This document shows, in pieces, positions 8,423 to 20,574 of a stretch of DNA of 64,000 nucleotides. The stretch lies in assembly GCA_045580305.1 (NCBI GenBank), contig JAZNNQ010000027.1, positions 5,772-69,771 on the forward strand, given 5' to 3'. Numbering within the stretch: position 1 is the stretch's first letter; every line of letters begins with the position of its first letter. The notes under the pieces are model-generated. The model was not told where the DNA came from and ran no database searches. It worked only from the letters and a program-made list of their open reading frames with translations. Source of the DNA: Eubacteriales bacterium. Its GTDB lineage: Bacteria; Bacillota; Clostridia; Oscillospirales; JAAYXM01. Position numbers and translations under genes: made by a program.

Positions 8423-9457
8423 ATGATAAATGTAGGAATTGTAGGCGCAACCGGCTACGGCGGCGTTGAGCTTGTGCGACTTCTTCTCGCCCGCGACGAT
8501 GTAAATTTATGCTCTCTTAGCTCTGTTTCCTTTGAGGGTAAGAAAATTTCCGAAATTTACCCAATGCTTTACGGTATTTGCGACGATACCTTGGATACTC
8601 AGGACAAGGTAGTCGCAAAGTGCGATGTTATTTTCGCGGCACTTCCTCATGGCCTTTCCCAGAGCCTTGCAAAAGAGTGCATCGACAAAGGTAAGATTTT
8701 CATCGACCTTGGCGCGGATTTCCGCTTAGAGGATGAGGAAACTTATAAAAAGTGGTACGGTGGCAATTTTGAGGACAAAGAGCTTCAGGACAGCGCGGTT
8801 TATGGCCTTTGCGAATTAAATCGCGACAAATTACGCGGCGCGCGCCTTGTTGCAAACCCGGGTTGTTACCCCACCTCTATTGCGTTGGGTCTTTACCCTG
8901 CACTAAAGGGCGGTTTTTGTTCCACAAAGGGAATTATTATTGACTCCAAGTCCGGAGCGACGGGTGCCGGTCGCGGTCTTACCCAGACTACTCATTTCAC
9001 CGAATTAAACGAAGGTTTTGCTGCATACAAGGTAGGCAGTCACCGCCACACACCGGAAATTGAGCAGACCTTATCCAAAATGGCGGGCGAGGATGTGAAG
9101 GTTACCTTTGTTCCCCATCTTCTCCCAATCAATCGCGGAATTGAATCCACAATTTACGCGGAAATGAATCAGGAATACACTTTACTCCAGATCCACGACG
9201 CTTATGTGGATTTCTACAAAAATGAGAAATTCGTTACCGTTATGCCTTTAGGCAGTGCGGCAAATGTAAAAAATGTGCGAATGACAAATCAGTGTCAGAT
9301 TTCCCTGCACGAGGACAAGCACACCGGCCGTATTATTATCTCATCGGTAATTGATAATATGGTGAAAGGTGCGGCAGGTCAGGCTATTCAAAATATGAAT
9401 TTAGCACTCGGCTTACCGGAGGACAGAGGTCTTCCCATCTTAGCACCTGCATTTTAG
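8423..9457 (+). CDS. argC: N-acetyl-gamma-glutamyl-phosphate reductase
   Basis: 344 aa, GATGYGG NAD motif, active-site PGCYPT. Confidence 0.95.
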   Translation: MINVGIVGATGYGGVELVRLLLARDDVNLCSLSSVSFEGKKISEIYPMLYGICDDTLDTQDKVVAKCDVIFAALPHGLSQSLAKECIDKGKIFIDLGADFRLEDEETYKKWYGGNFEDKELQDSAVYGLCELNRDKLRGARLVANPGCYPTSIALGLYPALKGGFCSTKGIIIDSKSGATGAGRGLTQTTHFTELNEGFAAYKVGSHRHTPEIEQTLSKMAGEDVKVTFVPHLLPINRGIESTIYAEMNQEYTLLQIHDAYVDFYKNEKFVTVMPLGSAANVKNVRMTNQCQISLHEDKHTGRIIISSVIDNMVKGAAGQAIQNMNLALGLPEDRGLPILAPAF

Positions 9458-9467
9458 GAGAATGATT

Positions 9468-10682
9468 ATGAAAGAGATTTTAGGCGGTGTTTGTGCACCA
9501 CTCGGTTTTACAGCAGCGGGTATCCACTCGGGAATCCGCAAAAATAAAGACAGATTAGACCTTGCCCTTATCTCCTGCGAGCGTGAATGCAACGCGGCGG
9601 CAACCTTTACCACAAATCGTGTTAAGGCGGCGCCAGTGCAGCTTGATATGAAGAATATCAAAAGCGGCAAGATGCAGGCGGTAATCGTAAACAGCGGTAA
9701 CGCCAACGCCTGTGCACCCAACGGTATGGAGAATGCTGAAAAAATGTGCAAGATAGCGGCGGAGGCCCTCAATATCGCGCCCGAGCGCGTTTTCGTCTGC
9801 TCTACCGGCGTTATCGGCGTAGAGCTTGACACCACTCCGGTTGAAAAGGGTATGCCGAGCCTCGTGTCAGCTCTTTCCAAAGAAGGCGCTGAAAATGCGG
9901 CGCAGGCGATACTTACGACCGATCTTGTTAAAAAGGAGATCGCTTTAGAGGCAGAGATTGGCGGCAAGACCGTTAAAATCGGTGCGATCGCAAAGGGCTC
10001 GGGTATGATTCATCCCAATATGGGTACTATGCTCTGCTTTATCACAACGGATGCGGCTATAAGTTCTGAGCTTCTTCACGATGCACTCCTTGCAACGGTT
10101 AAAAGAACATTTAACCGCGTGAGCGTCGACGGTGATACCTCAACTAACGACACCGCGGTAGTAATGGCATCCGGCCTTGCGGGAAATGCTGAAATTACCG
10201 ATAAAAACGAGGATTATAACACCTTCTGCGCACTTCTCTATAAGGTTTGTGAGCATCTTGCCCGCGAGATGGCTCGTGACGGTGAGGGCGCGACACATCT
10301 TATCACCTGTGTGGTAAGTGGTGCAAAAGATGAAAAGAGCGCTGAAAAAATGGCGAAATCCGTTATTGGCTCGTCTCTTACAAAGGCGGCAATGTTCGGC
10401 GCAGATGCCAACTGGGGCCGCGTAATTTGTGCTATGGGCTACTCGGGCGAGGATTTCGATCCGGAAAAGGTTAAAATTTCTTTTAAGTCATCAGTCGGCG
10501 AGATTTTAGTTTGTGAAAACGGACGCGGTCTTGTTTTTGATGAAGATTTAGCTAAAAAGATCCTCACACAAGAGGAAGTTATCATTTGCGCCGAGCTTTG
10601 CGAGGGTCAGGCGTCAGCCACCGTTTGGGGTTGTGACCTTACCTACGATTATGTCAAAATTAACGGCGATTACAGAAGTTAG
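9468..10682 (+). CDS. argJ: bifunctional ornithine acetyltransferase / N-acetylglutamate synthase
   Basis: ATG 9468 has the better AGGAG spacing (7 nt). Autoprocessing site ...MLCFITTDA..., 404 aa. Confidence 0.93.
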   Translation: MKEILGGVCAPLGFTAAGIHSGIRKNKDRLDLALISCERECNAAATFTTNRVKAAPVQLDMKNIKSGKMQAVIVNSGNANACAPNGMENAEKMCKIAAEALNIAPERVFVCSTGVIGVELDTTPVEKGMPSLVSALSKEGAENAAQAILTTDLVKKEIALEAEIGGKTVKIGAIAKGSGMIHPNMGTMLCFITTDAAISSELLHDALLATVKRTFNRVSVDGDTSTNDTAVVMASGLAGNAEITDKNEDYNTFCALLYKVCEHLAREMARDGEGATHLITCVVSGAKDEKSAEKMAKSVIGSSLTKAAMFGADANWGRVICAMGYSGEDFDPEKVKISFKSSVGEILVCENGRGLVFDEDLAKKILTQEEVIICAELCEGQASATVWGCDLTYDYVKINGDYRS

Positions 10683-10694
10683 GAGGCTATTCCT

Positions 10695-11564
10695 ATGAAC
10701 AGTCATATCGAGCGCGCTAAAATACTTGTAGAGGCGCTTCCCTATATCCAGAAATACTATAACAAGACCGTTGTTATAAAATACGGCGGCAACGCTATGA
10801 TAAACGAGGAGTTAAAAGAGGCGGTAATCAACGATATTGTGCTTCTTTCCCTTGTCGGCGTTAAGGTTGTTGTCGTACACGGCGGTGGCCCCGAGATTAA
10901 CGCTATGTTCGAGCGCGTTGGTAAGGAGAGCAAGTTTGTAAACGGTCTCCGCTATACCGATGATGACTCTATGGACTTAGTCCAGATGGTACTCGCCGGC
11001 AAATTAAATAAGGAAATCGTTTCCATCATCAATAAGGCGGGCGGTCGCGCAATCGGCCTCTGCGGTATTGATGGCGGACTTTTCAAGGCTGAAAAGTTAA
11101 CTGAGGACGGCTTTGACTATGGTCGTGTAGGTGAGATCACCCAGGTTGACACCTCTGTTGTAAACGATGCCCTTAATTGCGGCTTTATCCCGGTTATCTC
11201 CACCGTTGCACAGGGCGAGGACGGAAGCTATAACATCAACGCTGACACTGCGGCTGCAAAGCTTGCGGCGGCGCTTGGTGCTGAAAAGGTTATGCTCCTT
11301 ACCGATATTGCAGGTCTTATGATGGATCCCAAGGATCCCACGACCCTTATCCGCGATATCAATGTTTCCGAGATTCCCCGTCTCCAGCGCGACGGCGTTA
11401 TCTCCGGCGGTATGATTCCCAAGATCGACTGCTGTGTTGAGGCGGTTCGTCAGGGCGTTGCCCAGGCGAATATTTTAGACGGAAGAGTTCCCCACTCCAT
11501 CCTTATGGAGATGCTGTCCGATGAGGGTATCGGCACTATGATCTACGGCGAAAGGTGTGTGTAA
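10695..11564 (+). CDS. argB: acetylglutamate kinase
   Basis: 289 aa, VIKYGGNAM...VVVHGGGP...NINAD.AA. Confidence 0.95.
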   Translation: MNSHIERAKILVEALPYIQKYYNKTVVIKYGGNAMINEELKEAVINDIVLLSLVGVKVVVVHGGGPEINAMFERVGKESKFVNGLRYTDDDSMDLVQMVLAGKLNKEIVSIINKAGGRAIGLCGIDGGLFKAEKLTEDGFDYGRVGEITQVDTSVVNDALNCGFIPVISTVAQGEDGSYNINADTAAAKLAAALGAEKVMLLTDIAGLMMDPKDPTTLIRDINVSEIPRLQRDGVISGGMIPKIDCCVEAVRQGVAQANILDGRVPHSILMEMLSDEGIGTMIYGERCV

Positions 11565-11570
11565 TTTTCG

Positions 11571-12758
11571 ATGAACACACAGGAAATAAAATGTAAAGAT
11601 TCCGCATTTATAATGCAGACCTACGGCCGCTTCCCCGTTGCGATAACACGCGGCGAGGGTGCTAAGGTCTACAGCCCGGAGGGCAAGGAATATATCGACT
11701 TTACAAGCGGTATCGGCGTTTGTAGCGTAGGCTATGGCAATAAAGAATGGGCAGACGCTATATACGCGCAGGCTTTAAAGCTCGGTCACATCTCAAACCT
11801 CTATTACACCGAACCGTCGGTAATTCTTGCGGAGCGTCTGTGTACTATTTCCGGTATGAGCAATGTGTTTTTCTCAAACTCCGGTGCTGAGAGTAACGAA
11901 GGCGCAATCAAACTTGCAAGAAAGTACAGCCGTGATAAATACGGTGATGGCAGAAGTAAGATTATCACTCTTTACCAGTCCTTCCACGGCAGAACGGTTA
12001 CCACTCTTGCCGCAACCGGCCAGGATGTGTTCCACACAAACTTTTTCCCTTTTACCGAGGGATTTGTCCATGTTCCGGCAAACGATTTTGAGGCACTTCT
12101 AAACGAGGTTGACGACACCACTTGCGCTATTATGATGGAGCTTGTTCAGGGCGAGGGCGGCGTATTACCGCTTGATCGTGAATTTGTAAATAAAGTTCGC
12201 ACACTTTGCGACGAAAAAGACATTCTCCTTATAATCGACGAGGTGCAGACCGGTATCGGTCGTACGGGCAAACTTTTCGCCTTTATGGAATACGGCATCC
12301 TGCCCGATGTTGCAACTACCGCAAAGGGTATTGCAGGCGGTCTTCCGATGGGTGCTGTATTTGCAAGTGAGAAGACAAAAAATGTACTTACTGCAGGTAC
12401 ACACGCTACCACATTTGGCGCAAACCCGATATGCGCTGCTGCGGCAAACAAAGTTCTCGATATTTTAGAGAGCGGAGTGCTTGCTGAAGTATCAAAAAAA
12501 GGTGCATACATCCGCGAGAAAATCGAGGCTATGAACCTTGATATTGTAAAGGGCACCCGTGGTTTGGGTATGATGATCGGCGTCATTGTCCCGGAGGGTG
12601 AGCATAAGGCGCTTGCCGCAAAATTAATTGATGCAGGACTTCTGTGTATCACAGCAGGTAAGGATGCAATTCGATTCTTACCACCCCTTACAATAACATA
12701 TGAAGAAATAGATCTTGGTCTTAAAATATTTGAAACCGTTATGAAGGAGGCGAAGTAG
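11571..12758 (+). CDS. argD: acetylornithine aminotransferase
   Basis: 395 aa class-III PLP aminotransferase (SGAESNEGA..., IDEVQTG.GRTG, TFGANP). Confidence 0.93.
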   Translation: MNTQEIKCKDSAFIMQTYGRFPVAITRGEGAKVYSPEGKEYIDFTSGIGVCSVGYGNKEWADAIYAQALKLGHISNLYYTEPSVILAERLCTISGMSNVFFSNSGAESNEGAIKLARKYSRDKYGDGRSKIITLYQSFHGRTVTTLAATGQDVFHTNFFPFTEGFVHVPANDFEALLNEVDDTTCAIMMELVQGEGGVLPLDREFVNKVRTLCDEKDILLIIDEVQTGIGRTGKLFAFMEYGILPDVATTAKGIAGGLPMGAVFASEKTKNVLTAGTHATTFGANPICAAAANKVLDILESGVLAEVSKKGAYIREKIEAMNLDIVKGTRGLGMMIGVIVPEGEHKALAAKLIDAGLLCITAGKDAIRFLPPLTITYEEIDLGLKIFETVMKEAK

Positions 12759-12761
12759 CCA

Positions 12762-13673
12762 ATGAAACACCTTTTAAAAATTACCGATTTATCCCGCGAG
12801 GACATCACCCACATTTTAGATGTGGCAGATCAGCTTAAATATAACCAGAAGCACGGAATTCCCCACAGACTTCTCGAGGGCAAGACCCTTGCTATGATTT
12901 TCCAGAAATCGTCCACCCGTACCCGTGTTTCCTTCGATGTTGGTATGTTCCAGCTTGGCGGCCACGCGATGTTCCTCTCTACTGCTGATATTCAGATGGG
13001 CAGAGGTGAGTCCATTCGTGACACCGCCCGCGTTCTTTCCCGCTATTGCGACGGTATTATGATCCGTACCTACGGTCAGGACGAGGTTGAGGAACTTGCT
13101 GAATATGCAACTATTCCGGTTATAAACGGCCTTACCGACTACTCTCATCCCTGCCAGGTTTTAGCTGACTTAATGACAATTCGTGAGCATCTTAAGACCT
13201 TAGAGGGACTCCATATGTGCTATATCGGCGACGGTAATAATATGGCAAACTCTCTTGTTGCCGGCGGTCTTATCACCGGTATGAAGGTAACCTGCGCTAC
13301 TCCCAAGGGCTATGAGCCGGACCCCCAGATACTTGATTTTGCAAAGCAGTACAATGATAAGTTTACCTGGTATGAGGATGTTATGGAAGCGGCAAAGGGC
13401 GCTGACATTCTTGTTACCGATGTTTGGGCAAGTATGGGTCAGGAGTCAGAGCGTGAAGAGCGCGCAAGAATTTTCAAAGGCTATCAGATAAATGATGCTG
13501 TAATGCAGGTGGCAAATAAGGGCGCAATCGTCCTCCACTGCTTACCCGCACATAAGGGCGAAGAGATCACCGAAGAGGTATTTGAAAAGTATGCAGACAG
13601 CATCTTCGATGAGGCTGAGAACAGACTCCATGCACAGAAAGCGGTTATGGCGATCTGCATGGGCGATAAGTAA
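12762..13673 (+). CDS. argF: ornithine carbamoyltransferase
   Basis: 303 aa, STRTR carbamoyl-phosphate motif, HPCQ.LAD, HCLP. Confidence 0.95.
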   Translation: MKHLLKITDLSREDITHILDVADQLKYNQKHGIPHRLLEGKTLAMIFQKSSTRTRVSFDVGMFQLGGHAMFLSTADIQMGRGESIRDTARVLSRYCDGIMIRTYGQDEVEELAEYATIPVINGLTDYSHPCQVLADLMTIREHLKTLEGLHMCYIGDGNNMANSLVAGGLITGMKVTCATPKGYEPDPQILDFAKQYNDKFTWYEDVMEAAKGADILVTDVWASMGQESEREERARIFKGYQINDAVMQVANKGAIVLHCLPAHKGEEITEEVFEKYADSIFDEAENRLHAQKAVMAICMGDK

Positions 13674-13680
13674 AATAAAT

Positions 13681-13716
13681 AAAATAAGAGCATCGGCTTA
13701 CCGATGCTCTTATTTT
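13681..13716. terminator. bidirectional intrinsic terminator (argF / XRE gene)
   Basis: Perfect 16-bp stem aaaataagagcatcgg/ccgatgctcttatttt with loop ctta. A-run on one side and T-run on the other. Confidence 0.85.
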
Positions 13717-13952
13717 ATTTCCTGTTCTAAATTGTTGAAAACTTCTGTAGAAAAGAATTCCCCCAAAGGTATTTCCAACCCATCGCAAAACTTTTTAATT
13801 GTGCGAATGGACACATCGCGGCGATTTTTATCCATCATACTGTATGCTGTTGAGGGCGTGACACCGGATATATTGGCAAGTTCATTAATGGTAATATTGC
13901 GCTCCTTGCACAACTCATAAAATCTATTTACAATTACATCCTTAAGATCCAT
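13710..13952 (-). CDS. XRE-family helix-turn-helix transcriptional regulator
   Basis: 80 aa, ...ITINELANISGVTPSTAYSMM...TIKKFCDGLEIPLGEFF is a classic HTH_3/XRE layout. GAGGTG RBS. Confidence 0.85.
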   Translation of the reverse strand: MDLKDVIVNRFYELCKERNITINELANISGVTPSTAYSMMDKNRRDVSIRTIKKFCDGLEIPLGEFFSTEVFNNLEQEIK

Positions 13953-13995
13953 TTTAAAACACCTCGTAAGGACATTTTAAAATAATTTACGATTA

Positions 13996-14007
13996 TGCGT
14001 ATACGCA
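13996..14007. promoter_or_regulatory. perfect 12-bp palindrome TGCGTATACGCA in the divergent XRE/Zn-ribbon intergenic region (candidate operator)
   Basis: Self-complementary, flanked by TTACG...CGTAA. A TATAAT (14035-14040) lies downstream on the + strand. Confidence 0.4.
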
Positions 14008-14078
14008 CTTGCGTAAACTGCCGAAAGATGTTAGTATAATTGTGAGGACTAAAAAATTCAAACGAAAGGTTGATAAAA

Positions 14079-14258
14079 ATGAAAAACGAAAAAGTAGTGT
14101 TGCCTAAAGGTAAGCTTTGCGCGATGTATTATTGCGGTGATTGTCGTCATTTAGATCGTAGTGACAGATCAAAAGATGGCGAGGCCGCTTACTGCAGACT
14201 TCACAGAACATACAGATGCTTAGATAAAGACTATGGTTGTTCAGACTGGTCAAGATAA
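14079..14258 (+). CDS. 59-aa Cys-rich, Zn-ribbon-like small protein (unknown family)
   Basis: ATG 14079 lies 9 nt after GAAAGG. Cys14/19/22/39/47/54 plus His24/42, giving C-x4-C-x2-C...C-x2-H-x4-C-x6-C. Confidence 0.55.
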   Translation: MKNEKVVLPKGKLCAMYYCGDCRHLDRSDRSKDGEAAYCRLHRTYRCLDKDYGCSDWSR

Positions 14259-14655
14259 GAAAATACATATAAAAGAAGAAATATTTGGTAAAATCTGCGC
14301 GTCAATAAGTAAAAACCGATATGAAACCGGCGGTATTATAGGAATCAACTCACGAGGGATAGTGTGTGCCTTTCAGTTGGATCATATAACAACGGCATAT
14401 CCATACGAATATCGGACAAATACACGGTTTTTAAATGATGTGATTGAAAGGTGGGCAAAAGTAGGTATAACCTTTGCCGGCATCGTCCATTCACATATGC
14501 ATAATAACTGTATATCTCGCGAGGATATAGAATATGCCCGAGAGATATTAAAGGCAAATGAATTTATGAAGGATATCATAATGGGCATTATAGACTTGTC
14601 CGGCGAGGCTGAATATATTGAGTGGTACTTAATCAATGCCGAAACGGTTATGTAG
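14233..14655 (+). CDS. JAB/MPN(JAMM)-like metalloprotease-domain protein
   Basis: 140 aa. E31 lies in YETGGIIG, then 55 aa later H86-S-H88-x6-S95-x2-D98 (IVHSHMHNNCISRED). Canonical JAMM is HxHx7Sx2D, so the spacer is one residue short. Overlaps the upstream ORF by 26 nt. Confidence 0.6.
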   Translation: MVVQTGQDKKIHIKEEIFGKICASISKNRYETGGIIGINSRGIVCAFQLDHITTAYPYEYRTNTRFLNDVIERWAKVGITFAGIVHSHMHNNCISREDIEYAREILKANEFMKDIIMGIIDLSGEAEYIEWYLINAETVM

Positions 14656-14754
14656 TAATAAAAATTAGGGCTAATCTGATAGCCATCCGCACAGAGAGTG
14701 GTGCATATGAAGAGATAATGGGCCAACGAAAGGAAGATAAGGATATGAAAAACA
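14650..14754 (+). repeat. 105-bp direct repeat, copy 1 (leader + RBS + first codons of the downstream gene)
   Basis: The first 62 nt are identical to 15290-15351. The remaining 43 nt have 4 mismatches. Confidence 0.95.
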
Positions 14755-15281
14755 CAGTTGGTGGTTATTGCGCAGGCATAGGAATTGTTTTATTTTTAGC
14801 GATTTGCGGTGTAGGTGAAAGTTGGACGGACACGGCTACAAGGGCTTTAGCGGCAATTGTAATTATTGTATCTACAATAATAGGAATCGCGATGGATATA
14901 AGTGAAGCAAAAACAAATGCGGTAGACAAAAAAGACTCTGCTGCCATAGCTGTTGCAGTTATGTTTATAGAACAGGGATACAAAATCGCGCAACGATACC
15001 GGATTTATGACCCATGCCTTTTAACCGTGCATAAACGAGAGGTTGGGTTCGAAGTTGTATTATACACATTGAGTCCATACTCATATATAGCTAATTTACG
15101 AACAAATGATTTATTTATTCCTCGCAACGATGATGGCGATGGTTGCTTAGTGAAGGTGTGCAATATGGATATTGAGTGCAGTTGGAGTAAGTTTGAGAAG
15201 GAAGTGTGGAATGAAGTCAAGTGTGAACATCCATCTTGGAATGTTCAGTATAACAATGGGCATGGCATAATAAAATTTTAG
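14745..15281 (+). CDS. membrane protein (2-3 N-terminal TM helices plus ~100-aa soluble C-terminal domain), unknown family
   Basis: Start refined to the ATG at 14745 behind GGAAGATAAGG. Hydrophobic runs GIGIVLFLAICGV, ALAAIVIIVSTIIGIA, AAIAVAVMFI. Confidence 0.6.
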   Translation: MKNTVGGYCAGIGIVLFLAICGVGESWTDTATRALAAIVIIVSTIIGIAMDISEAKTNAVDKKDSAAIAVAVMFIEQGYKIAQRYRIYDPCLLTVHKREVGFEVVLYTLSPYSYIANLRTNDLFIPRNDDGDGCLVKVCNMDIECSWSKFEKEVWNEVKCEHPSWNVQYNNGHGIIKF

Positions 15282-15289
15282 TCGATAAT

Positions 15290-15394
15290 ATGTAGTAATA
15301 AAAATTAGGGCTAATCTGATAGCCATCCGCACAGAGAGTGGTGCATATGAATAGATAACGTGCCAACGAAAGGAAGATAAGGGTATGAAAAACA
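15290..15394 (+). repeat. 105-bp direct repeat, copy 2
   Basis: See copy 1. Ends with the same ATGAAAAACA start context. Confidence 0.95.
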
Positions 15395-15498
15395 ATAAAG
15401 AAAGTCGCAGCAATGATCGCGCAATAAATGAGGCATGTGATGTAATAGACGAAGCAATAGAGATTGTAGAAAAACACGCAAATAGTGCTCACAAATAG
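15385..15498 (+). CDS. 37-codon ORF behind repeat copy 2 (MKNNKESRSNDRAINEACDVIDEAIEIVEKHANSAHK)
   Basis: Shares the RBS, ATG and MKN start with the gene at 14745. Not in the ORF track (<60 aa). Coding status uncertain. Confidence 0.3.
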   Translation: MKNNKESRSNDRAINEACDVIDEAIEIVEKHANSAHK

Positions 15499-15500
15499 GT

Positions 15501-15626
15501 ATGATTTCAAGAAGAATAGGTGAGTATTCAAGCTTCTGCATTTACATTGGTGTGGATGATATAGCACAAGCGAAGCAAATAGGAAGTCAAAAACGGAAAG
15601 AACTTCTGTTGGAAAATGCACCGTGA
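15501..15626 (+). pseudogene. 41-codon ORF, possibly the frameshifted N-terminal remnant of the following gene
   Basis: MISRRIGEYSSFCIYIGVDDIAQAKQIGSQKRKELLLENAP. Overlaps the ATG at 15616 by 11 nt in another frame. Confidence 0.2.
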
Positions 15627-16200
15627 TGGATATTTGAATTATGTGAAAAAACCTTGCCTTATATACGAGTCTGTGACAGATGTCGGAAACTTTAAAGAGC
15701 ATGACAAATGGGTGTGGGATGTCATTGTAGGATTTTATGAACCAGAGTGGAATCCATTTTATGACAAGAATGGATTTACCTACATTGTTCAAAGTAATCA
15801 ATATATATCTGCATCGGCTACGAAACAAGCAGAGAAAAAATATTATCCTAATTTAACATGCGAACCAGTAGATACGGTGGTAAAACAAATAGAAAAGGCA
15901 TACAAGATGGTTAAGAAATATAAAAGTTTGTTTGGACCAATAGCTATTGTTATGGGGAAGACTGATAAAAAAGAAACCTACACACTTAGTTTCTCTTCTT
16001 TATTTTTAAGTGAAAAAGATGTTAATTATATAGTCAAAAATGAAGGTTCTCGTGGATTTCGTATAGAGAAAAAGGGAGATTCCGAGTGGCTTTTTCATAC
16101 TGAACTTAGAGGAAATGAAAATCTTCAATCCGGCACATGGGAAAAAGTCGAAAAATTGCATCCAGATTGGGATATTATTGATTATGTTGTATTTTGTTAA
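15616..16200 (+). CDS. hypothetical 194-aa soluble protein, no recognisable motif
   Basis: Long ORF in an AT-rich context, followed by a strong terminator. The C-terminal W-EK-E..HP-W..Y string weakly resembles the C-terminus of the 14745 gene. Confidence 0.55.
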   Translation: MHRDGYLNYVKKPCLIYESVTDVGNFKEHDKWVWDVIVGFYEPEWNPFYDKNGFTYIVQSNQYISASATKQAEKKYYPNLTCEPVDTVVKQIEKAYKMVKKYKSLFGPIAIVMGKTDKKETYTLSFSSLFLSEKDVNYIVKNEGSRGFRIEKKGDSEWLFHTELRGNENLQSGTWEKVEKLHPDWDIIDYVVFC

Positions 16201-16218
16201 TAATATTATGATAGTTAA

Positions 16219-16258
16219 AGGAGCGACCAAAAATAATGGTCGCTCCTAAATTTTATTT
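16219..16258 (+). terminator. intrinsic terminator closing the islet
   Basis: aggagcgacc/ggtcgctcct 10-bp stem with a 9-nt loop, then a T-rich tail. Confidence 0.8.
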
Positions 16259-16390
16259 AAAACAAGAAAAACAAGCTATTATCAACAGAGACGATACCTA
16301 GCAAAAGTGAAACTTTTATATGTTTTGTAGTAGGATTAAAAGATAGATCTACAAATTGATAACTTTTCAAACAAGCATAGCTTGTAATCC

Positions 16391-19336
16391 TTATTCAAAT
16401 GTATACTTGTAAGTGTTTGTGCCGTGTACGCCGTAGAGGTTTCCGTAGTTGTCCTCAACATGGTACAGACCGGAATCGCGGATGAGAAGCTGTACATCCT
16501 TGGTCTTAATATCGATACTGTAAATGTTTGCGGTCTGACGGAAGTCGCTGGGAATAATACCGACATTATAAAGGTCAGATACATAAATCTTGGTACCGTC
16601 GTTTGAAAGGGTCATCTTATCGCCGTACCAGGTAGCACCGAAGTTATTGATGGAAACATTCTTCTCATAAATTACCTTGTTTGCCTTCGGATCGAAGATG
16701 AAGAGGCGGGTGCTGGTGGTTTCCTCGCAGTTTGCAAGACCCCAGACATTTCCGTCGGATGCGGTTGTCATAGCGGTAATTGCGGTAGCGCCCGGAATGA
16801 TTACACCATACTTCTCAAACTCCTTGGTAGCGAAGTTGTAGGAGAAGAGTTCGCACTCGGTAGCTCTTGCATCGGTGTTACTGCCCGGACGGATGGATGT
16901 ACCGAAGAATACCTTACGGTTTGCGTAAGCAATACCGGTAATGGTAAGGTCCGGTACGACAGAGTGAGTTGACCAGAAGGTATCGTCGTTCTTTTCCATA
17001 TCATAGAATGCGATTGCGCTGCCGTAGAAGCCCTGCTTAGGAATGGTAGCCACTACCATGGTCTTCTCCTCGGGGATACCGAGAAGGTTATAGGGACGGT
17101 CCTGTTTGGGATAGGTATCGTCATCTGCCTTAGAGCCCATATTCATTGCCAGATACGGGTTGCTTGCCGCTGTATCCCAAGGCTTTGTAGTGTCGTATTT
17201 AGAAATGTAGGAGTTGGGGTAACGGCCGAAGAAAACATAATCGCCGTAAACGCCCATACCCTCGACCTGACGGAGACCGTAGAGGTCCTCAAACTCGTCT
17301 GTGGTGGGGTTATAGCGACCGGTAGAAGCACCGATGTAGCCACCAATGTAGATGTTACCGTCATTTGCCTTGATTGTACAGTTACCGGTGGTGGGGTTAC
17401 CTTCGATAACAAGCTGAATGAAGCTTAACTTATTGGTTTCTAAGTTATAGCGCAGGAATGAGCCTAAATGGCTGTTAAGAGTAACAAATGACCAGCCGGG
17501 GAATTCCGGATCATCAAGCTCTAAGAAAATGAAGTTAAGAGGAGCGGTGCCCCATGCATCCGGCACACCCTCTGCAATGTAGGATATTTCGTCGGTGTCC
17601 ACATTGTATTTATAGAACTGAACATCGTCGAAGAAATATACAAAGTTTCCGACAGGAGAGAGAGCAGAAACTGCACGACCGTTCATATGAGTCTCGGTTA
17701 ATTTCTCGCCTGTTTCAAGATGTGTAAAGGTGATTTCCTCACCGGTTTTCGCATCGAGTACGAATAAGTTACTGCCAACCTCGCTGCGGCAGAAGAGCTT
17801 GCCGTTAACCAAGCGCATATCATAAACAACACCGATAGAGTCAACATATTTCTGGGGGAGAATGTTTACCTTCTCACCGGTCTTGGGGTTGAAACGATAT
17901 ACATATGCCTTGCCTTCACTGCTACGAGCAGCAACGAAAACAACATCGCTGTCCGGATCAGCAATGGAATAATACTGACCGTAGTCCTTGTCGCCTAATT
18001 TATATTCAGTGAACTTGTCGGTCTTGGGGTCTAAGCTGTAAATGGAATTTGAGGTAGCTTGCGCGCCCCAGATGATACCGTTTTCATCCTCGGTCATAAC
18101 AAGGGGAAGGGTTGAACCACCGGCAGGCGGGCCGATAAGCTCAAGTGTTTCGGTATCGACATTCCAACGATAAATAAGCGCCTCGCCATATGCGGCAACA
18201 TAGCAATCGCCGGAGGAGTGCACGAAGACGCCCCAGGCACCGTTTGATTTGCGTGTGTTACCCTTTTCATCAACAAGTTCAAGGGGAATACAAAATACCT
18301 GCTCACCGGTTTCCGGACGAATACCGATAAAGGAAGCGGGAGTACCGTCGTTTACCATATAAACGATGTTCTTGCCGTCCTTGTCCTTGCCACCGTCGCA
18401 GTACTTATTGTATACAACCTCGTTGGTGACGCCAAGATCGCGAGTGGTATAACCGCCACCGTTACGGCTTAAGTCATTCTTGACGAATTTACCTAAAAGT
18501 TCGGTTTTATCGTCTTTGTAAACGGTCTTTTCGGTACAGTTGCGGAGTACGATATTACCCTCGACCTTAACATTCTCAAGGTGAATTAAAGACCAAGCGT
18601 CAACCGCCTCAGAGAGGATAAGGTCGCCCTTGACGGTCATATTCTTTAAAGTTGTATCCTTTGCGGTAACGAGAAGGTTACCATCAACATCCTTGTCATA
18701 TGTACCGGACGCGGTGTCGGTAATCATACGGTCGAGAAGAGTAACAAATTCAGCGCGAGTAACATTTCCCTTTGGGGAAAGCTTTCCGTTTGCGCCTTTT
18801 GCATAGCCTAAATTGATCATAGCCGCGGTAGCGTCCTTTGCCCAGGAGCTAACCAGACCCTTGTCGGTAAAGCCATCGATAGAAGCGGTCTTGTCATATT
18901 GGATACAGAAAAGACGAGAGAGCACGGTGAAGGTTTCTTCACGGGTGATGCTGTCCTGAGGACGCATCTTCATATTGGCACCAAAGATAACCTGCATACG
19001 GCGAGCCGCAGCAATGTCTTCAGCATACCAAGCATCAGCAGGAACATCGGTGTATCCGGTTAAATCCTCAACTAATGTTGCGCCGAAGATGCGGCGAACA
19101 ATGGCGGAAAGCTGTGCTCTTGTGAGCCAAGCATCCGGATTAAGACAGTCACCGTTACCGTTGATCCAGCCGCTGTCTGCAGCACGGGTAAGGGAAGCCT
19201 CAGCCCAGTGGTCATCAATGTCGGCCCAGCTTTTCTCGGGTGCGGGGGAGATAACCATATCGTTTGCAAATGCAACAACGGAGCAGGAGCAAAGAATGGA
19301 TACGGTTAAGAGAAACGCTAAAAATCTGTTTTTCAT
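16391..19336 (-). CDS. SLH-domain surface protein with a large repeat (beta-propeller-like) C-terminal region
   Basis: 981 aa. Signal peptide MKNRFLAFLLTVSILCSCSVVAFA, then three N-terminal SLH repeats (W..A......G...G........TRA....L.R). About 12-14 short repeats of type hYhh....G.hY.h(D/N)..T.E follow. Confidence 0.8.
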   Translation of the reverse strand: MKNRFLAFLLTVSILCSCSVVAFANDMVISPAPEKSWADIDDHWAEASLTRAADSGWINGNGDCLNPDAWLTRAQLSAIVRRIFGATLVEDLTGYTDVPADAWYAEDIAAARRMQVIFGANMKMRPQDSITREETFTVLSRLFCIQYDKTASIDGFTDKGLVSSWAKDATAAMINLGYAKGANGKLSPKGNVTRAEFVTLLDRMITDTASGTYDKDVDGNLLVTAKDTTLKNMTVKGDLILSEAVDAWSLIHLENVKVEGNIVLRNCTEKTVYKDDKTELLGKFVKNDLSRNGGGYTTRDLGVTNEVVYNKYCDGGKDKDGKNIVYMVNDGTPASFIGIRPETGEQVFCIPLELVDEKGNTRKSNGAWGVFVHSSGDCYVAAYGEALIYRWNVDTETLELIGPPAGGSTLPLVMTEDENGIIWGAQATSNSIYSLDPKTDKFTEYKLGDKDYGQYYSIADPDSDVVFVAARSSEGKAYVYRFNPKTGEKVNILPQKYVDSIGVVYDMRLVNGKLFCRSEVGSNLFVLDAKTGEEITFTHLETGEKLTETHMNGRAVSALSPVGNFVYFFDDVQFYKYNVDTDEISYIAEGVPDAWGTAPLNFIFLELDDPEFPGWSFVTLNSHLGSFLRYNLETNKLSFIQLVIEGNPTTGNCTIKANDGNIYIGGYIGASTGRYNPTTDEFEDLYGLRQVEGMGVYGDYVFFGRYPNSYISKYDTTKPWDTAASNPYLAMNMGSKADDDTYPKQDRPYNLLGIPEEKTMVVATIPKQGFYGSAIAFYDMEKNDDTFWSTHSVVPDLTITGIAYANRKVFFGTSIRPGSNTDARATECELFSYNFATKEFEKYGVIIPGATAITAMTTASDGNVWGLANCEETTSTRLFIFDPKANKVIYEKNVSINNFGATWYGDKMTLSNDGTKIYVSDLYNVGIIPSDFRQTANIYSIDIKTKDVQLLIRDSGLYHVEDNYGNLYGVHGTNTYKYTFE

Positions 19337-19357
19337 ATTGTTACCCTTCCTTATAAT

Positions 19358-20509
19358 TTATTTTTGAAGCAGACGGTCTAAAATTACAGCGACCTCTGCG
19401 CGGGTTGCATTGTTTTTCGGGTTGATCTTACCGTTTGTGCCGGTAATAATCTCAGCCTGAGTGAGAAGGTTAACCGCATCGACGGCATAAGCGGAAACCG
19501 CACTGATATCGGAAAATGCAGGGTAGGAGGTAGAGGTGAGATTGATGCCCGCCTTCTCGGTAGCGCGCTTAATGATTACCATAATGTCCTGACGGGTAAT
19601 GGGAGCGGTGGGGTTAAACCTATCCTTGCTCACACCGGTAGCGATACCAAGCTCTTTTGCGATACCAACAGCATTGTAGTAATATGCGTTTGTGGGTACA
19701 TCCGCAAAGTTTTCACTAAAGTCAACCTTGAAACCAAACGCGCGAACGATAAGAGTAATAAAGTCAGCGCGGGTGATGTTCTTGCCGGGCGCATAGGTGG
19801 TAGCGCTTGTACCGTTGATTATACCCTGATAGAAAAGGTTGTATATTGCATCCTTTGCCCAGGGGTAACCGCCAAGATCGGTAAAGGTCTGTGCCTGGGA
19901 AGCGGGGATCCACTGTGCATACAGGGTCATAGAGCCGTAAATTTTAGATGTAAAATCAAAGGGCTGTTTTCCGAATGGATCGGTTGTCCACCCGGTGAAA
20001 ACATAGCCGTCACAAGTGGGGGGAGTGGGCGCATTTGCGGTCTCGCCCTCAACAACGGTGATCTTTTCCACATAGCTTCCACCCTGAGTGTCAAAGTCGA
20101 TTATATAGGTGGTAGCGCCGGCGGGGATGTCACTATAATCGCTACCGGCCGCGCTGCCTGAATTGCCGCCGGTAATACCGCCGAGAAGCGGGTTGATTGT
20201 AAAGTTAGCGGTGATGCTTACATTCTGTGCCGGCATAACAAAGGTTGTTACATAGTTTATTTCGCTGTCCAAAACAATGGGGTCATCGGTTGTCCAGTTG
20301 TAGAACACATAGCCGGTCTGAGGACTTGCCATAATTCTAATGGTAGTGCCGGGGGTGGCCCAACTCTGTGACGCCTCAACAACGCCGCCACCCAGAGTCA
20401 AAAGGGTGATGGAATATTCCGTAGGCTCGGCACTATCGGTCGCAAGAGCTACTGTAGATGTAAATACCAATAAAAGGGAAAGTAATAACGAGATGGATTT
20501 TTTAAGCAT
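19358..20509 (-). CDS. surface protein with InlB-B / Listeria-Bacteroides repeats and three C-terminal SLH domains
   Basis: Start refined to MLKKSISLLL (ATG 20509 behind GGAGAG). Contains FDTQGG....GY.FTGW......F.F.....MTLYAQW. SLH repeats at the C-terminus. Sits 21 nt upstream of the 981-aa gene. Confidence 0.8.
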   Translation of the reverse strand: MLKKSISLLLSLLLVFTSTVALATDSAEPTEYSITLLTLGGGVVEASQSWATPGTTIRIMASPQTGYVFYNWTTDDPIVLDSEINYVTTFVMPAQNVSITANFTINPLLGGITGGNSGSAAGSDYSDIPAGATTYIIDFDTQGGSYVEKITVVEGETANAPTPPTCDGYVFTGWTTDPFGKQPFDFTSKIYGSMTLYAQWIPASQAQTFTDLGGYPWAKDAIYNLFYQGIINGTSATTYAPGKNITRADFITLIVRAFGFKVDFSENFADVPTNAYYYNAVGIAKELGIATGVSKDRFNPTAPITRQDIMVIIKRATEKAGINLTSTSYPAFSDISAVSAYAVDAVNLLTQAEIITGTNGKINPKNNATRAEVAVILDRLLQK

Positions 20510-20574
20510 AAAAAACTCTCCTTTCAAAGCTTATTTATAGTATAACATTTATTAAATCCGCGCGCAACTGCCAT

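Follow-up and report, generated by a model that had tools for sequence, protein, structure and literature searches.

Bacterial JAB peptidases are understood almost wholly through their ubiquitin-like partners: Cap3 of the cyclic-oligonucleotide-based antiphage signaling system (CBASS), Bil, SAMP, and the sulfur-carrier systems. Reference points for such minimal prokaryotic JAB/MPN+ enzymes, which run to some 130-150 residues, include the Prok-JAB family (PF14464), the Pyrococcus furiosus enzyme PfJAMM1 (PDB 5LD9/5LDA), Cap3 (PDB 9ILD), and the Rpn11 homologue of Caldiarchaeum. Here we describe a JAB gene of comparably minimal size in a 64,000-nucleotide stretch of Eubacteriales DNA (contig JAZNNQ010000027.1; hereafter the window, to which coordinates refer unless a locus is named), whose product shares the fold and the E...HxH...S..D residue set of those proteins. 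Unlike the enzymes of ubiquitin-like systems, it has no ubiquitin-like, E1, E2, or CD-NTase gene nearby and carries a catalytic spacer that is one residue shorter; also unlike them, it is obligatorily paired with a four-cysteine (Cys4) mini-protein, whose gene it overlaps.

The two genes are found as a pair in 14 loci of the close clade—the window, L001 and its duplicates, L004-L014, and L022—and in seven more distant lineages, making 21 lineages. A conserved, coupled pair of JAB and Cys4 mini-protein with no ubiquitin-like, E1, or E2 genes alongside matches no family in Pfam, NCBIfam, PADLOC, or PHROG, and we found no published description of it; a literature search on JAB with Zn-ribbon or XRE modules, or on DUF7140, returned nothing relevant. 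The features of the pair, all on the forward strand, are as follows.

14079-14258 (+), stop included: cysteine-rich mini-protein open reading frame (ORF), 59 residues
14233-14258 (+): 26-nt overlap of the mini-protein and JAB genes, with the JAB ATG in the +1 frame of the mini-protein ORF
14233-14655 (+): minimal JAB/MPN+ (JAMM) metallopeptidase, 140 residues, with E31, H86, H88, S95, and D98

A JAB/MPN+ domain with a complete catalytic site

An earlier reading of the window, made from its letters and ORFs (the sequence-only reading), had proposed that the 140-residue product is a JAB protein by virtue of E31 (within YETGG), H86-S-H88, S95, and D98. These residues stand where that reading placed them, and the fold, the family profile, and residue conservation together bear out a JAB/MPN+ domain with the full catalytic set. 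The AlphaFold2 model, in which the first ordered strand comprises residues 10-13, has a predicted local distance difference test score (pLDDT) of 91.6 and a predicted template-modeling score (pTM) of 0.85. Its predicted fold is that of MPN proteins: the top Foldseek matches in the PDB all belong to this class (probability 1.00; template-modeling score, TM, ~0.70-0.80), and include PfJAMM1 (5ld9/5lda; TM 0.71-0.80), CBASS Cap3 (9ild), the Caldiarchaeum Rpn11 homologue (6fno/6fnn), and proteasomal Rpn11.

Family assignment by profile is less direct. Against PF14464 the window protein itself reaches 16.8 bits (E=0.0066), which falls below the 25-bit gathering threshold, whereas 30 of 61 homologues do match Prok-JAB at E<=0.01, the best of them at 1e-8. 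Membership of the window protein would thus hold by transitive homology rather than by a direct match. The family profile, searched against the PDB, recovers P. furiosus JAMM1 at E=3e-5, and exhaustive HMMER searching from three close homologues gathered 1085 relatives at E<=1e-3. In the alignment of 61 relatives G33, G34, H86, H88, and D98 are invariant, and E31, S87, and S95 are kept in at least 90%; the protein is accordingly best described as predicted to be catalytically intact, with a complete site and putative peptidase activity.

The shortened spacer that had been pointed out in the window protein—six residues between HxH and Ser, where the canonical E-x(n)-H-x-H-x7-S-x2-D has seven—is real. 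It is found throughout the close clade, and more distant relatives have the canonical x7; on the alignment, the short spacer is a trait of the subclade. The Pro that often follows the second His is optional within the close clade, being present as HSHP in P0018, L005, and L009. Membership of the JAB family is in itself ordinary, the protease type being already known, and searches of PHROGs, NCBIfam, and PADLOC gave nothing for this protein beyond weak generic JAB matches.

A slowly evolving Cys4 mini-protein

The ORF upstream of JAB begins 9 nt after a Shine–Dalgarno (SD) sequence, GAAAGG at 14064-14069, and a GGAGG-type SD precedes its counterparts in nearly all loci. Relative to the syntenic orthologue in L001, the ratio of nonsynonymous to synonymous substitution rates (dN/dS) is 0.044 for the mini-protein and 0.245 for JAB (dS ~0.5-1.0). 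For comparison, argF and argD of the adjacent arginine operon give 0.033 and 0.037, the neighboring XRE-type regulator 0.026 (96% identity), and the downstream membrane protein 0.64 (45% identity). Mean identity over the 14 loci is 85% for the mini-protein core and 49% for JAB, with the mini-protein the more conserved partner in 91 of 91 locus pairs. These rates mark the mini ORF as a genuine gene that is strongly constrained; the sequence-only reading had left room for a Cys-rich ORF that was not conserved or not translated, and what we find is a conserved ORF equipped with its own SD.

The pattern C-x4-C-x2-C ... C-x2-H-x4-C-x6-C claimed for the window protein is indeed there, formed by Cys 14, 19, 22, 39, 47, and 54 with His 24 and 42. 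As a set, however, the six Cys and two His do not survive comparison. Across 16 diverse homologues exactly four cysteines are invariant (C19-x2-C22 ... C39 ... C54); C14 and H42 vary already inside the close clade, to S at 14 and to R or K at 42, and the conservation of C47 and H24 is restricted to that clade. Besides the cysteines, an LPxG motif at residues 8-11 is nearly invariant behind a leader of variable length. Family members differ at the C-terminus, and none ends in Gly-Gly. Word-based searches gathered first 8 and then 28 clusters of mini-protein homologues, all of 49-85 residues and none with a Pfam domain or a fusion.

These features suggest that the mini-protein is probably a Zn-ribbon-like, metal-binding partner of JAB, although only the first Cys pair forms a CxxC knuckle. 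A profile search of the PDB with the family gave nothing significant, with the Rpb12 and L28 Zn-ribbons at E ~0.2; matches to flavivirus prM were dismissed as chance hits driven by Cys bias. No match was found in PHROGs, NCBIfam, or PADLOC. The Pfam family DUF7140 (PF23601) aligns with the window mini-protein at 16.4 bits (E=0.0086), under its gathering threshold of 27 bits, and none of 10 other family members matches it even at E<=1, such that membership was rejected. One relative, a truncated homologue of 49 residues in L044 (1403-1552), lacks the last two Cys and has no JAB downstream. It is the only mini-protein relative seen without a JAB, and looks like a remnant.

An out-of-frame overlap probably kept for coupled translation

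As the sequence-only reading had noted, the JAB ATG lies 26 nt inside the mini ORF, in the +1 frame and with no SD of its own. A TAG stop in the JAB frame at 14221-14223, four codons upstream of ATG14233, together with the position of the first ordered strand at residues 10-13 of the protein, leaves ATG14233 as the only plausible start. The identical 26-nt, +1-frame overlap recurs in 14 independent assemblies. Nucleotide variation within it is limited across the 14 loci to third codon positions of the mini frame, and JAB residues 2-6 appear to vary passively with that frame. The JAB ATG itself derives from the TAT-GGN codons of mini-protein Y52-G53. In the GC-richer locus L005 (8155-8577) the Tyr codon is TAC rather than TAT and the JAB ATG becomes ACG; the ORF and its catalytic residues are intact there, the gene caller having missed the gene, and a TTG 12 nt upstream would give an overlap of 38 nt.

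Translational coupling, one of the options raised at the outset, fits these observations, with an SD on the mini-protein gene and no convincing one at the overlapped JAB start. Among the overlapped loci, 15 of the 16 analyzed have no SD match at the JAB start, and none is convincing; L004 has an AGGTG at the wrong distance, and the SD-like stretches of L008 and L046 are just 4 nt long and sit directly against the start codon. Among more distant pairs the overlap is 8 or 20 nt in some, and others have 9-105 nt between the genes; in L041, where the gap is 74 nt, JAB has its own GAGGT SD. On the geometry of the genes, coupling is the best reading of the overlap. Overlapping co-directional pairs are described in a study and a review as typically coupled in translation and often encoding subunits of a complex (PMC10666635; PMC12548453).

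The alternative that the two ORFs are really one Zn-ribbon–JAB fusion, expressed through a programmed +1/-2 frameshift or split by an assembly indel, is extremely improbable. It would account for a +1-frame overlap whose second ORF lacks an SD, and it could appeal to the loss of the ATG in L005 and to a JAB frame that is open further upstream in most loci. But a two-frame layout that is identical in 14 independent assemblies excludes an accidental indel. A programmed shift is unlikely: in the window the TAG confines it to a 35-nt stretch without a conserved slippery motif, where third positions vary freely, no slippery sequence is conserved at the overlap among the 14 loci, no significant RNA structure that might stimulate shifting surrounds it (folding z = -0.28), distant relatives keep the genes as much as 105 nt apart, and L005 has its TTG start available. 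Nor is a once-fused ancestor likely. No fused homologue was found among the relatives of either protein, none of the 28 mini-protein clusters exceeds 85 residues, and JAB homologues with N-terminal extensions lack a Cys-rich domain. From the comparative overlap, the lack of fusions, and the spaced pairs, we therefore take the two products to be separate proteins.

A recurrent pair in a variable cassette

Related cassettes come from metagenome-assembled genomes of uncultured gut Clostridia from roe deer, buffalo, and human, and the chromosomal neighborhood differs in every lineage. The constant part of the close-clade cassettes is the mini-protein and JAB only. Nine of the 14 close-clade loci also have a divergent gene for an XRE-type helix-turn-helix (HTH) regulator, and most of the distant cassettes adjoin HTH genes; the adjacent XREs belong to at least two families, with no mutual match at E<=1e-3. 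Two minimal loci, L006 and L007, apparently consist of just the mini-protein and JAB. A phage or plasmid origin for the cassette was considered and rejected, there being no match in viral, phage, or plasmid collections.

Beyond the close clade, an upstream Cys4 mini-protein also accompanies JABs of ~30-38% identity in L015-L018, L019, L020/L021, L024, L028/L041-L043, L032/L046/L047, and L033. The downstream genes of the distant cassettes are variable, encoding LRR_5 and other leucine-rich repeat (LRR) proteins, a lipase/Flg_new surface protein, an M23 peptidase, and mobile-element proteins. Two tandem, divergent Cys4 paralogues stand upstream of a single JAB in L020 (1800-2354) and L032 (4325-4741). 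Stand-alone JABs with no mini ORF were seen in L025/L026, in L029, and possibly in L027.

Descent from conjugation-associated JABs

That the pair lacks a ubiquitin-like, E1, or E2 partner had been remarked on in the sequence-only reading, and this observation stands: tblastn with eight JAB-E1 fusions matches JAB alone in the 64-kb window, and no ubiquitin-like, E1, E2, or CD-NTase gene was seen in the flanks of the paired loci examined. The nearest relatives outside the paired clade are nonetheless JAB-ThiF(E1) fusions of 500-740 residues from soil and peat, which share 31-36% identity with the window JAB (E 1e-11 to 1e-14) and match the CBASS E1-E2 and JAB profiles. From this kinship, and the absence of an E1 in 64 kb, we infer that the mini-paired JABs are an offshoot of a conjugation-associated, Cap3-like lineage, whose JABs elsewhere neighbor ubiquitin-like conjugation enzymes of the E1/E2 type or are fused to them, and that this offshoot has lost its conjugation genes.

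The fusion genes have conserved neighbors of their own in the soil and peat metagenomes (L030, L034, L036, L037, and L038). Upstream lies a gene of ~92-99 residues with the motif YRT.SG..YFRF...GE.RIY...QPSY, present in three tandem copies in L036, and downstream a gene of ~460-630 residues with the motif FINGS..AW..L......RCIRF.DQEMPP. These loci are a separate system of the ubiquitin-like conjugation type.

Genomic setting of the pair

The remaining features of the locus surround the pair as follows.

13677-13720: bidirectional terminator of the XRE gene and argF, a perfect 20-bp inverted repeat at the left edge of the low-GC island
13710-13952 (-): XRE/Cro-C1-type HTH regulator, 80 residues, divergent from the mini-JAB operon
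13953-14078: divergent regulatory region with palindrome, TATAAT, and the SD of the mini ORF
14649-14754 (+): direct repeat copy 1, 106 nt, comprising the leader, SD, and first four codons of the membrane-protein gene
14745-15281 (+): membrane-anchored protein, 178 residues, with N-terminal transmembrane helices, a variable C-terminal domain, and a terminal HPxW motif
15289-15394 (+): direct repeat copy 2, 106 nt, 96% identical to copy 1, heading a 37-residue ORF at 15385-15498
15616-16200 (+): HPxW-family paralogue of 194 residues without a transmembrane segment
16219-16247 (+): strong intrinsic terminator at the end of both operon and low-GC island, its 11-bp stem including 7 GC pairs

From 13700 to 16300, a span that takes in the XRE, mini-protein, JAB, and transmembrane-protein genes, GC content is 0.31-0.40, as against 0.45-0.51 in the flanks. 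This suggests that the segment at 13.7-16.3 kb is a horizontally acquired accessory island. It sits between the argCJBDF operon and a gene for an SLH-domain surface protein. The operon directly upstream is complete (argC, argJ, argB, argD, and argF at 8423-13673) and syntenic in L001-L003; to the right, 16391-20527 on the minus strand encodes two SLH-domain surface proteins of 981 and 389 residues, 94% identical to their L001 orthologues, the smaller of which has Flg_new-type repeats in the L001 orthologue.

The regulator matches the Pfam families HTH_26 (E=1.8e-9) and HTH_3 (E=3.4e-6). The intergenic region that it shares with the pair, 13953-14078, is 94% identical to L001, at a divergence where the flanking genes approach saturation at synonymous sites (dS ~0.8-1.0). 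Within this region a 32-bp imperfect palindrome at 13986-14017, TTTACGATTATGCGTATACGCACTTGCGTAAA, is likely to be the XRE operator, a candidate assignment made from its sequence and position; a TATAAT follows at 14035-14040, the promoter matches being by consensus alone. An Rfam scan of the cassette gave nothing beyond sub-threshold matches on the argF/XRE terminator hairpin. One of these, to traJ-II at 13623-13727 on the minus strand (33 bits versus a gathering score of 40), in all likelihood reflects chance similarity to the hairpin.

Downstream of JAB, the 178-residue membrane protein matches no Pfam, PHROG, NCBIfam, or PADLOC family, and the other proteins match none in the last three collections. 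The transmembrane/HPxW family to which the membrane protein belongs has members in ~10 of the 14 close-clade loci, and these have diverged widely, to 17-40% identity. Repeat copy 2 is followed by the 37-residue ORF, then by a 41-residue ORF, and then by the 194-residue paralogue that lacks a transmembrane segment. The region looks like a tandem duplication of the membrane-protein gene that has partly decayed, and the 194-residue ORF may be what remains of the second copy.

A possible two-subunit peptidase, and its rivals

How might such a pair work? We tentatively favor a reading in which an accessory conflict or toxin–antitoxin (TA)-like module is built around a two-subunit peptidase formed by the mini-protein and JAB, and put its probability at roughly 0.4; the proposed function is drawn from genes and models. 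Synthesis of JAB would depend on translation of the mini ORF, through termination-reinitiation or unmasking of the JAB start, and coupling of this kind would link the amounts of the two proteins while leaving the mini-protein in excess. The metal-binding mini-protein would then serve as an obligatory partner that gates or targets JAB, and JAB would cleave a protein substrate at an extended peptide tail. So constituted, the module could act as sensor or switch in a small cassette of the conflict type, whether toxin–antitoxin-like or defense-like, with the fast-evolving, membrane-anchored downstream proteins as its variable output and the XRE regulator holding expression down.

Several observations weigh against this proposal. 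Antitoxins and the specificity subunits of conflict systems are not typically conserved as strongly as the mini-protein, and characterized JAB peptidases act on ubiquitin-like tails (PMC3239186), no such substrate being present in the cassette. The upstream XRE is not universal, being absent from L009 and L014, and L006, L007, L009, and L014 are without the XRE, the membrane protein, or both; because neither gene is universal, the proposed output cannot be obligatory. No recognizable defense-island context was found, PADLOC returning just generic JAB and HTH matches, nor any cassette match among viral contigs, INPHARED phages, or PLSDB plasmids. The AlphaFold2 model of the mini-protein alone, built on a shallow alignment, is poor (pLDDT 49.5, three short strands).

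An ordinary two- or three-component TA module, with JAB as a toxic peptidase, the excess mini-protein as its antitoxin or inhibitor—perhaps a pseudo-substrate in the groove—and the XRE as a separate regulator, is in our estimation unlikely, if worth keeping in view. The gene order is what such a module would have, in that a small gene with a strong SD comes first and overlaps a larger enzyme gene with none; the cassette is small, low in GC, and scattered over chromosomal sites, L006 and L007 seem to hold the two genes alone, and JAB domains have been predicted as toxins elsewhere, namely Tox-JAB-1 and Tox-JAB-2 (PMC3482391). Yet the window JAB groups with enzymes of the ubiquitin-like-tail type and not with the divergent Tox-JAB and RadC proteins, and the mini-protein, which lacks a DNA-binding domain, evolves ~5-6x more slowly than JAB, the reverse of the usual relation between antitoxin and toxin. 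Somewhat less probable again is a more novel arrangement, a ubiquitin-independent JAB signaling module derived from the Cap3/E1 lineage, in which the Cys4 mini-protein would act as a non-beta-grasp tag or pro-protein, or as a metal or redox gate, and JAB would trigger the hypervariable membrane effectors, amounting to a new class of small conflict or defense switch in gut Clostridia that arose once the conjugation machinery was lost. If instead the mini-protein were simply the substrate of JAB, whether a pro-protein trimmed at its Lys-rich N-terminal leader or C-terminal tail or a small tag without a beta-grasp fold, its conservation far above that of the peptidase would recall ubiquitin-type modifiers and their deubiquitinases, the LPxG behind a variable leader would be suggestive, and relatives of the window JAB do act on the tails of conjugated proteins. 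This we consider distinctly improbable, given a C-terminus that is unconserved and never Gly-Gly, cassettes that in no case hold a conjugating enzyme, and a predicted Cys4 metal site, which is not a known feature of protein tags.

The sequence-only reading had suggested an action on the XRE or the membrane protein, as anti-repressor or peptidase. In a version of the ImmA/IrrE kind, a signal would lead JAB, with assistance from the mini-protein, to cut one or other of these targets and so turn the cassette on. The recurrence of HTH genes beside close and distant pairs alike, a strongly conserved operator region, and the known design of XRE and metallopeptidase pairs (ImmR/ImmA, DdrO/IrrE, and RmrA of RosmerTA) speak for it, as does a weak match of the window XRE to the HTH part of RmrA. 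The proposal is nevertheless improbable, with adjacent XREs that fall into unrelated families, loci that lack the XRE or the membrane protein, a regulator that is not co-transcribed with the peptidase, and a JAB fold unrelated to the M78 peptidases of ImmA/IrrE-type systems. Finally, JAB might be a Cap3-like deconjugase serving in trans an E1/E2/ubiquitin-like system encoded elsewhere in the genome, with the mini-protein as an unrelated neighbor. Its kinship with the E1 fusions and their CBASS profile matches would be explained, but there is no E1 in the 64 kb or in the other paired loci examined, and because the mini-protein and JAB co-occur strictly over 21 lineages with putatively coupled translation, the mini-protein is not an incidental neighbor; we rate this possibility as very slight.

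Comparison with known systems

Among described gene pairs, the phage lambda tail-tip proteins L and K offer a parallel, as L, with a C-terminal 4-Cys Fe-S site, is a Cys4 protein encoded just upstream of a JAB protein, K, which combines JAB with NlpC/P60. The window locus differs from L/K in having no phage genes and no phage, viral, or PHROG match, and in the sizes and architectures of its proteins. The XRE switches ImmR/ImmA of ICEBs1, DdrO/IrrE, and RmrA/RmrT of RosmerTA likewise set an XRE beside a Zn-peptidase with variable and often membrane-associated partners, in accessory cassettes of small size, a likeness in design only. The peptidase of those switches is an M78/COG2856 enzyme with a HEXXH motif, usually co-transcribed or fused with the HTH protein; here it is a JAB, divergent from the XRE and coupled to a Cys4 protein.

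Type II and tripartite TA systems such as omega-epsilon-zeta resemble the window locus in layout, with a small first gene that overlaps the gene for an enzyme, coupling that favors the first product, a separate regulator, and a scattered cassette. The likeness lies in gene order, overlap, and SD asymmetry. Unlike the antitoxin of a Type II system, the small protein of the window evolves more slowly than its partner and lacks a DNA-binding domain, and a JAB of the type found here is not a known toxin. Should the pair prove to be an ordinary toxin–antitoxin module, the gain would be modest. The long (26-nt) out-of-frame overlap is a clean natural example of an arrangement probably kept for translational coupling.

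The closest comparison in sequence is with the JAB-ThiF(E1) fusions, which resemble CBASS Cap2/Cap3 (NCBIfam 6A-MBL cap2_3) and have the motifs GG(I/M)LG, YxP(N/D), LN..I..W, and HSH in common with the window family. They differ in carrying a fused adenylating E1, in their other conserved flanking genes and lack of a mini ORF, and in coming from soil and peat rather than gut Clostridia. Set beside them, the paired clade represents an apparent branch of the same JAB lineage without conjugation genes, tied to a Cys4 protein whose rate of evolution is about as low as that of the adjacent housekeeping genes. If the pair is a functional unit, it would offer a compact two-gene module, ~600 bp in length and native to gut commensals, that lends itself readily to testing, and would widen the range of substrates or regulators with which JAB peptidases are known to work.

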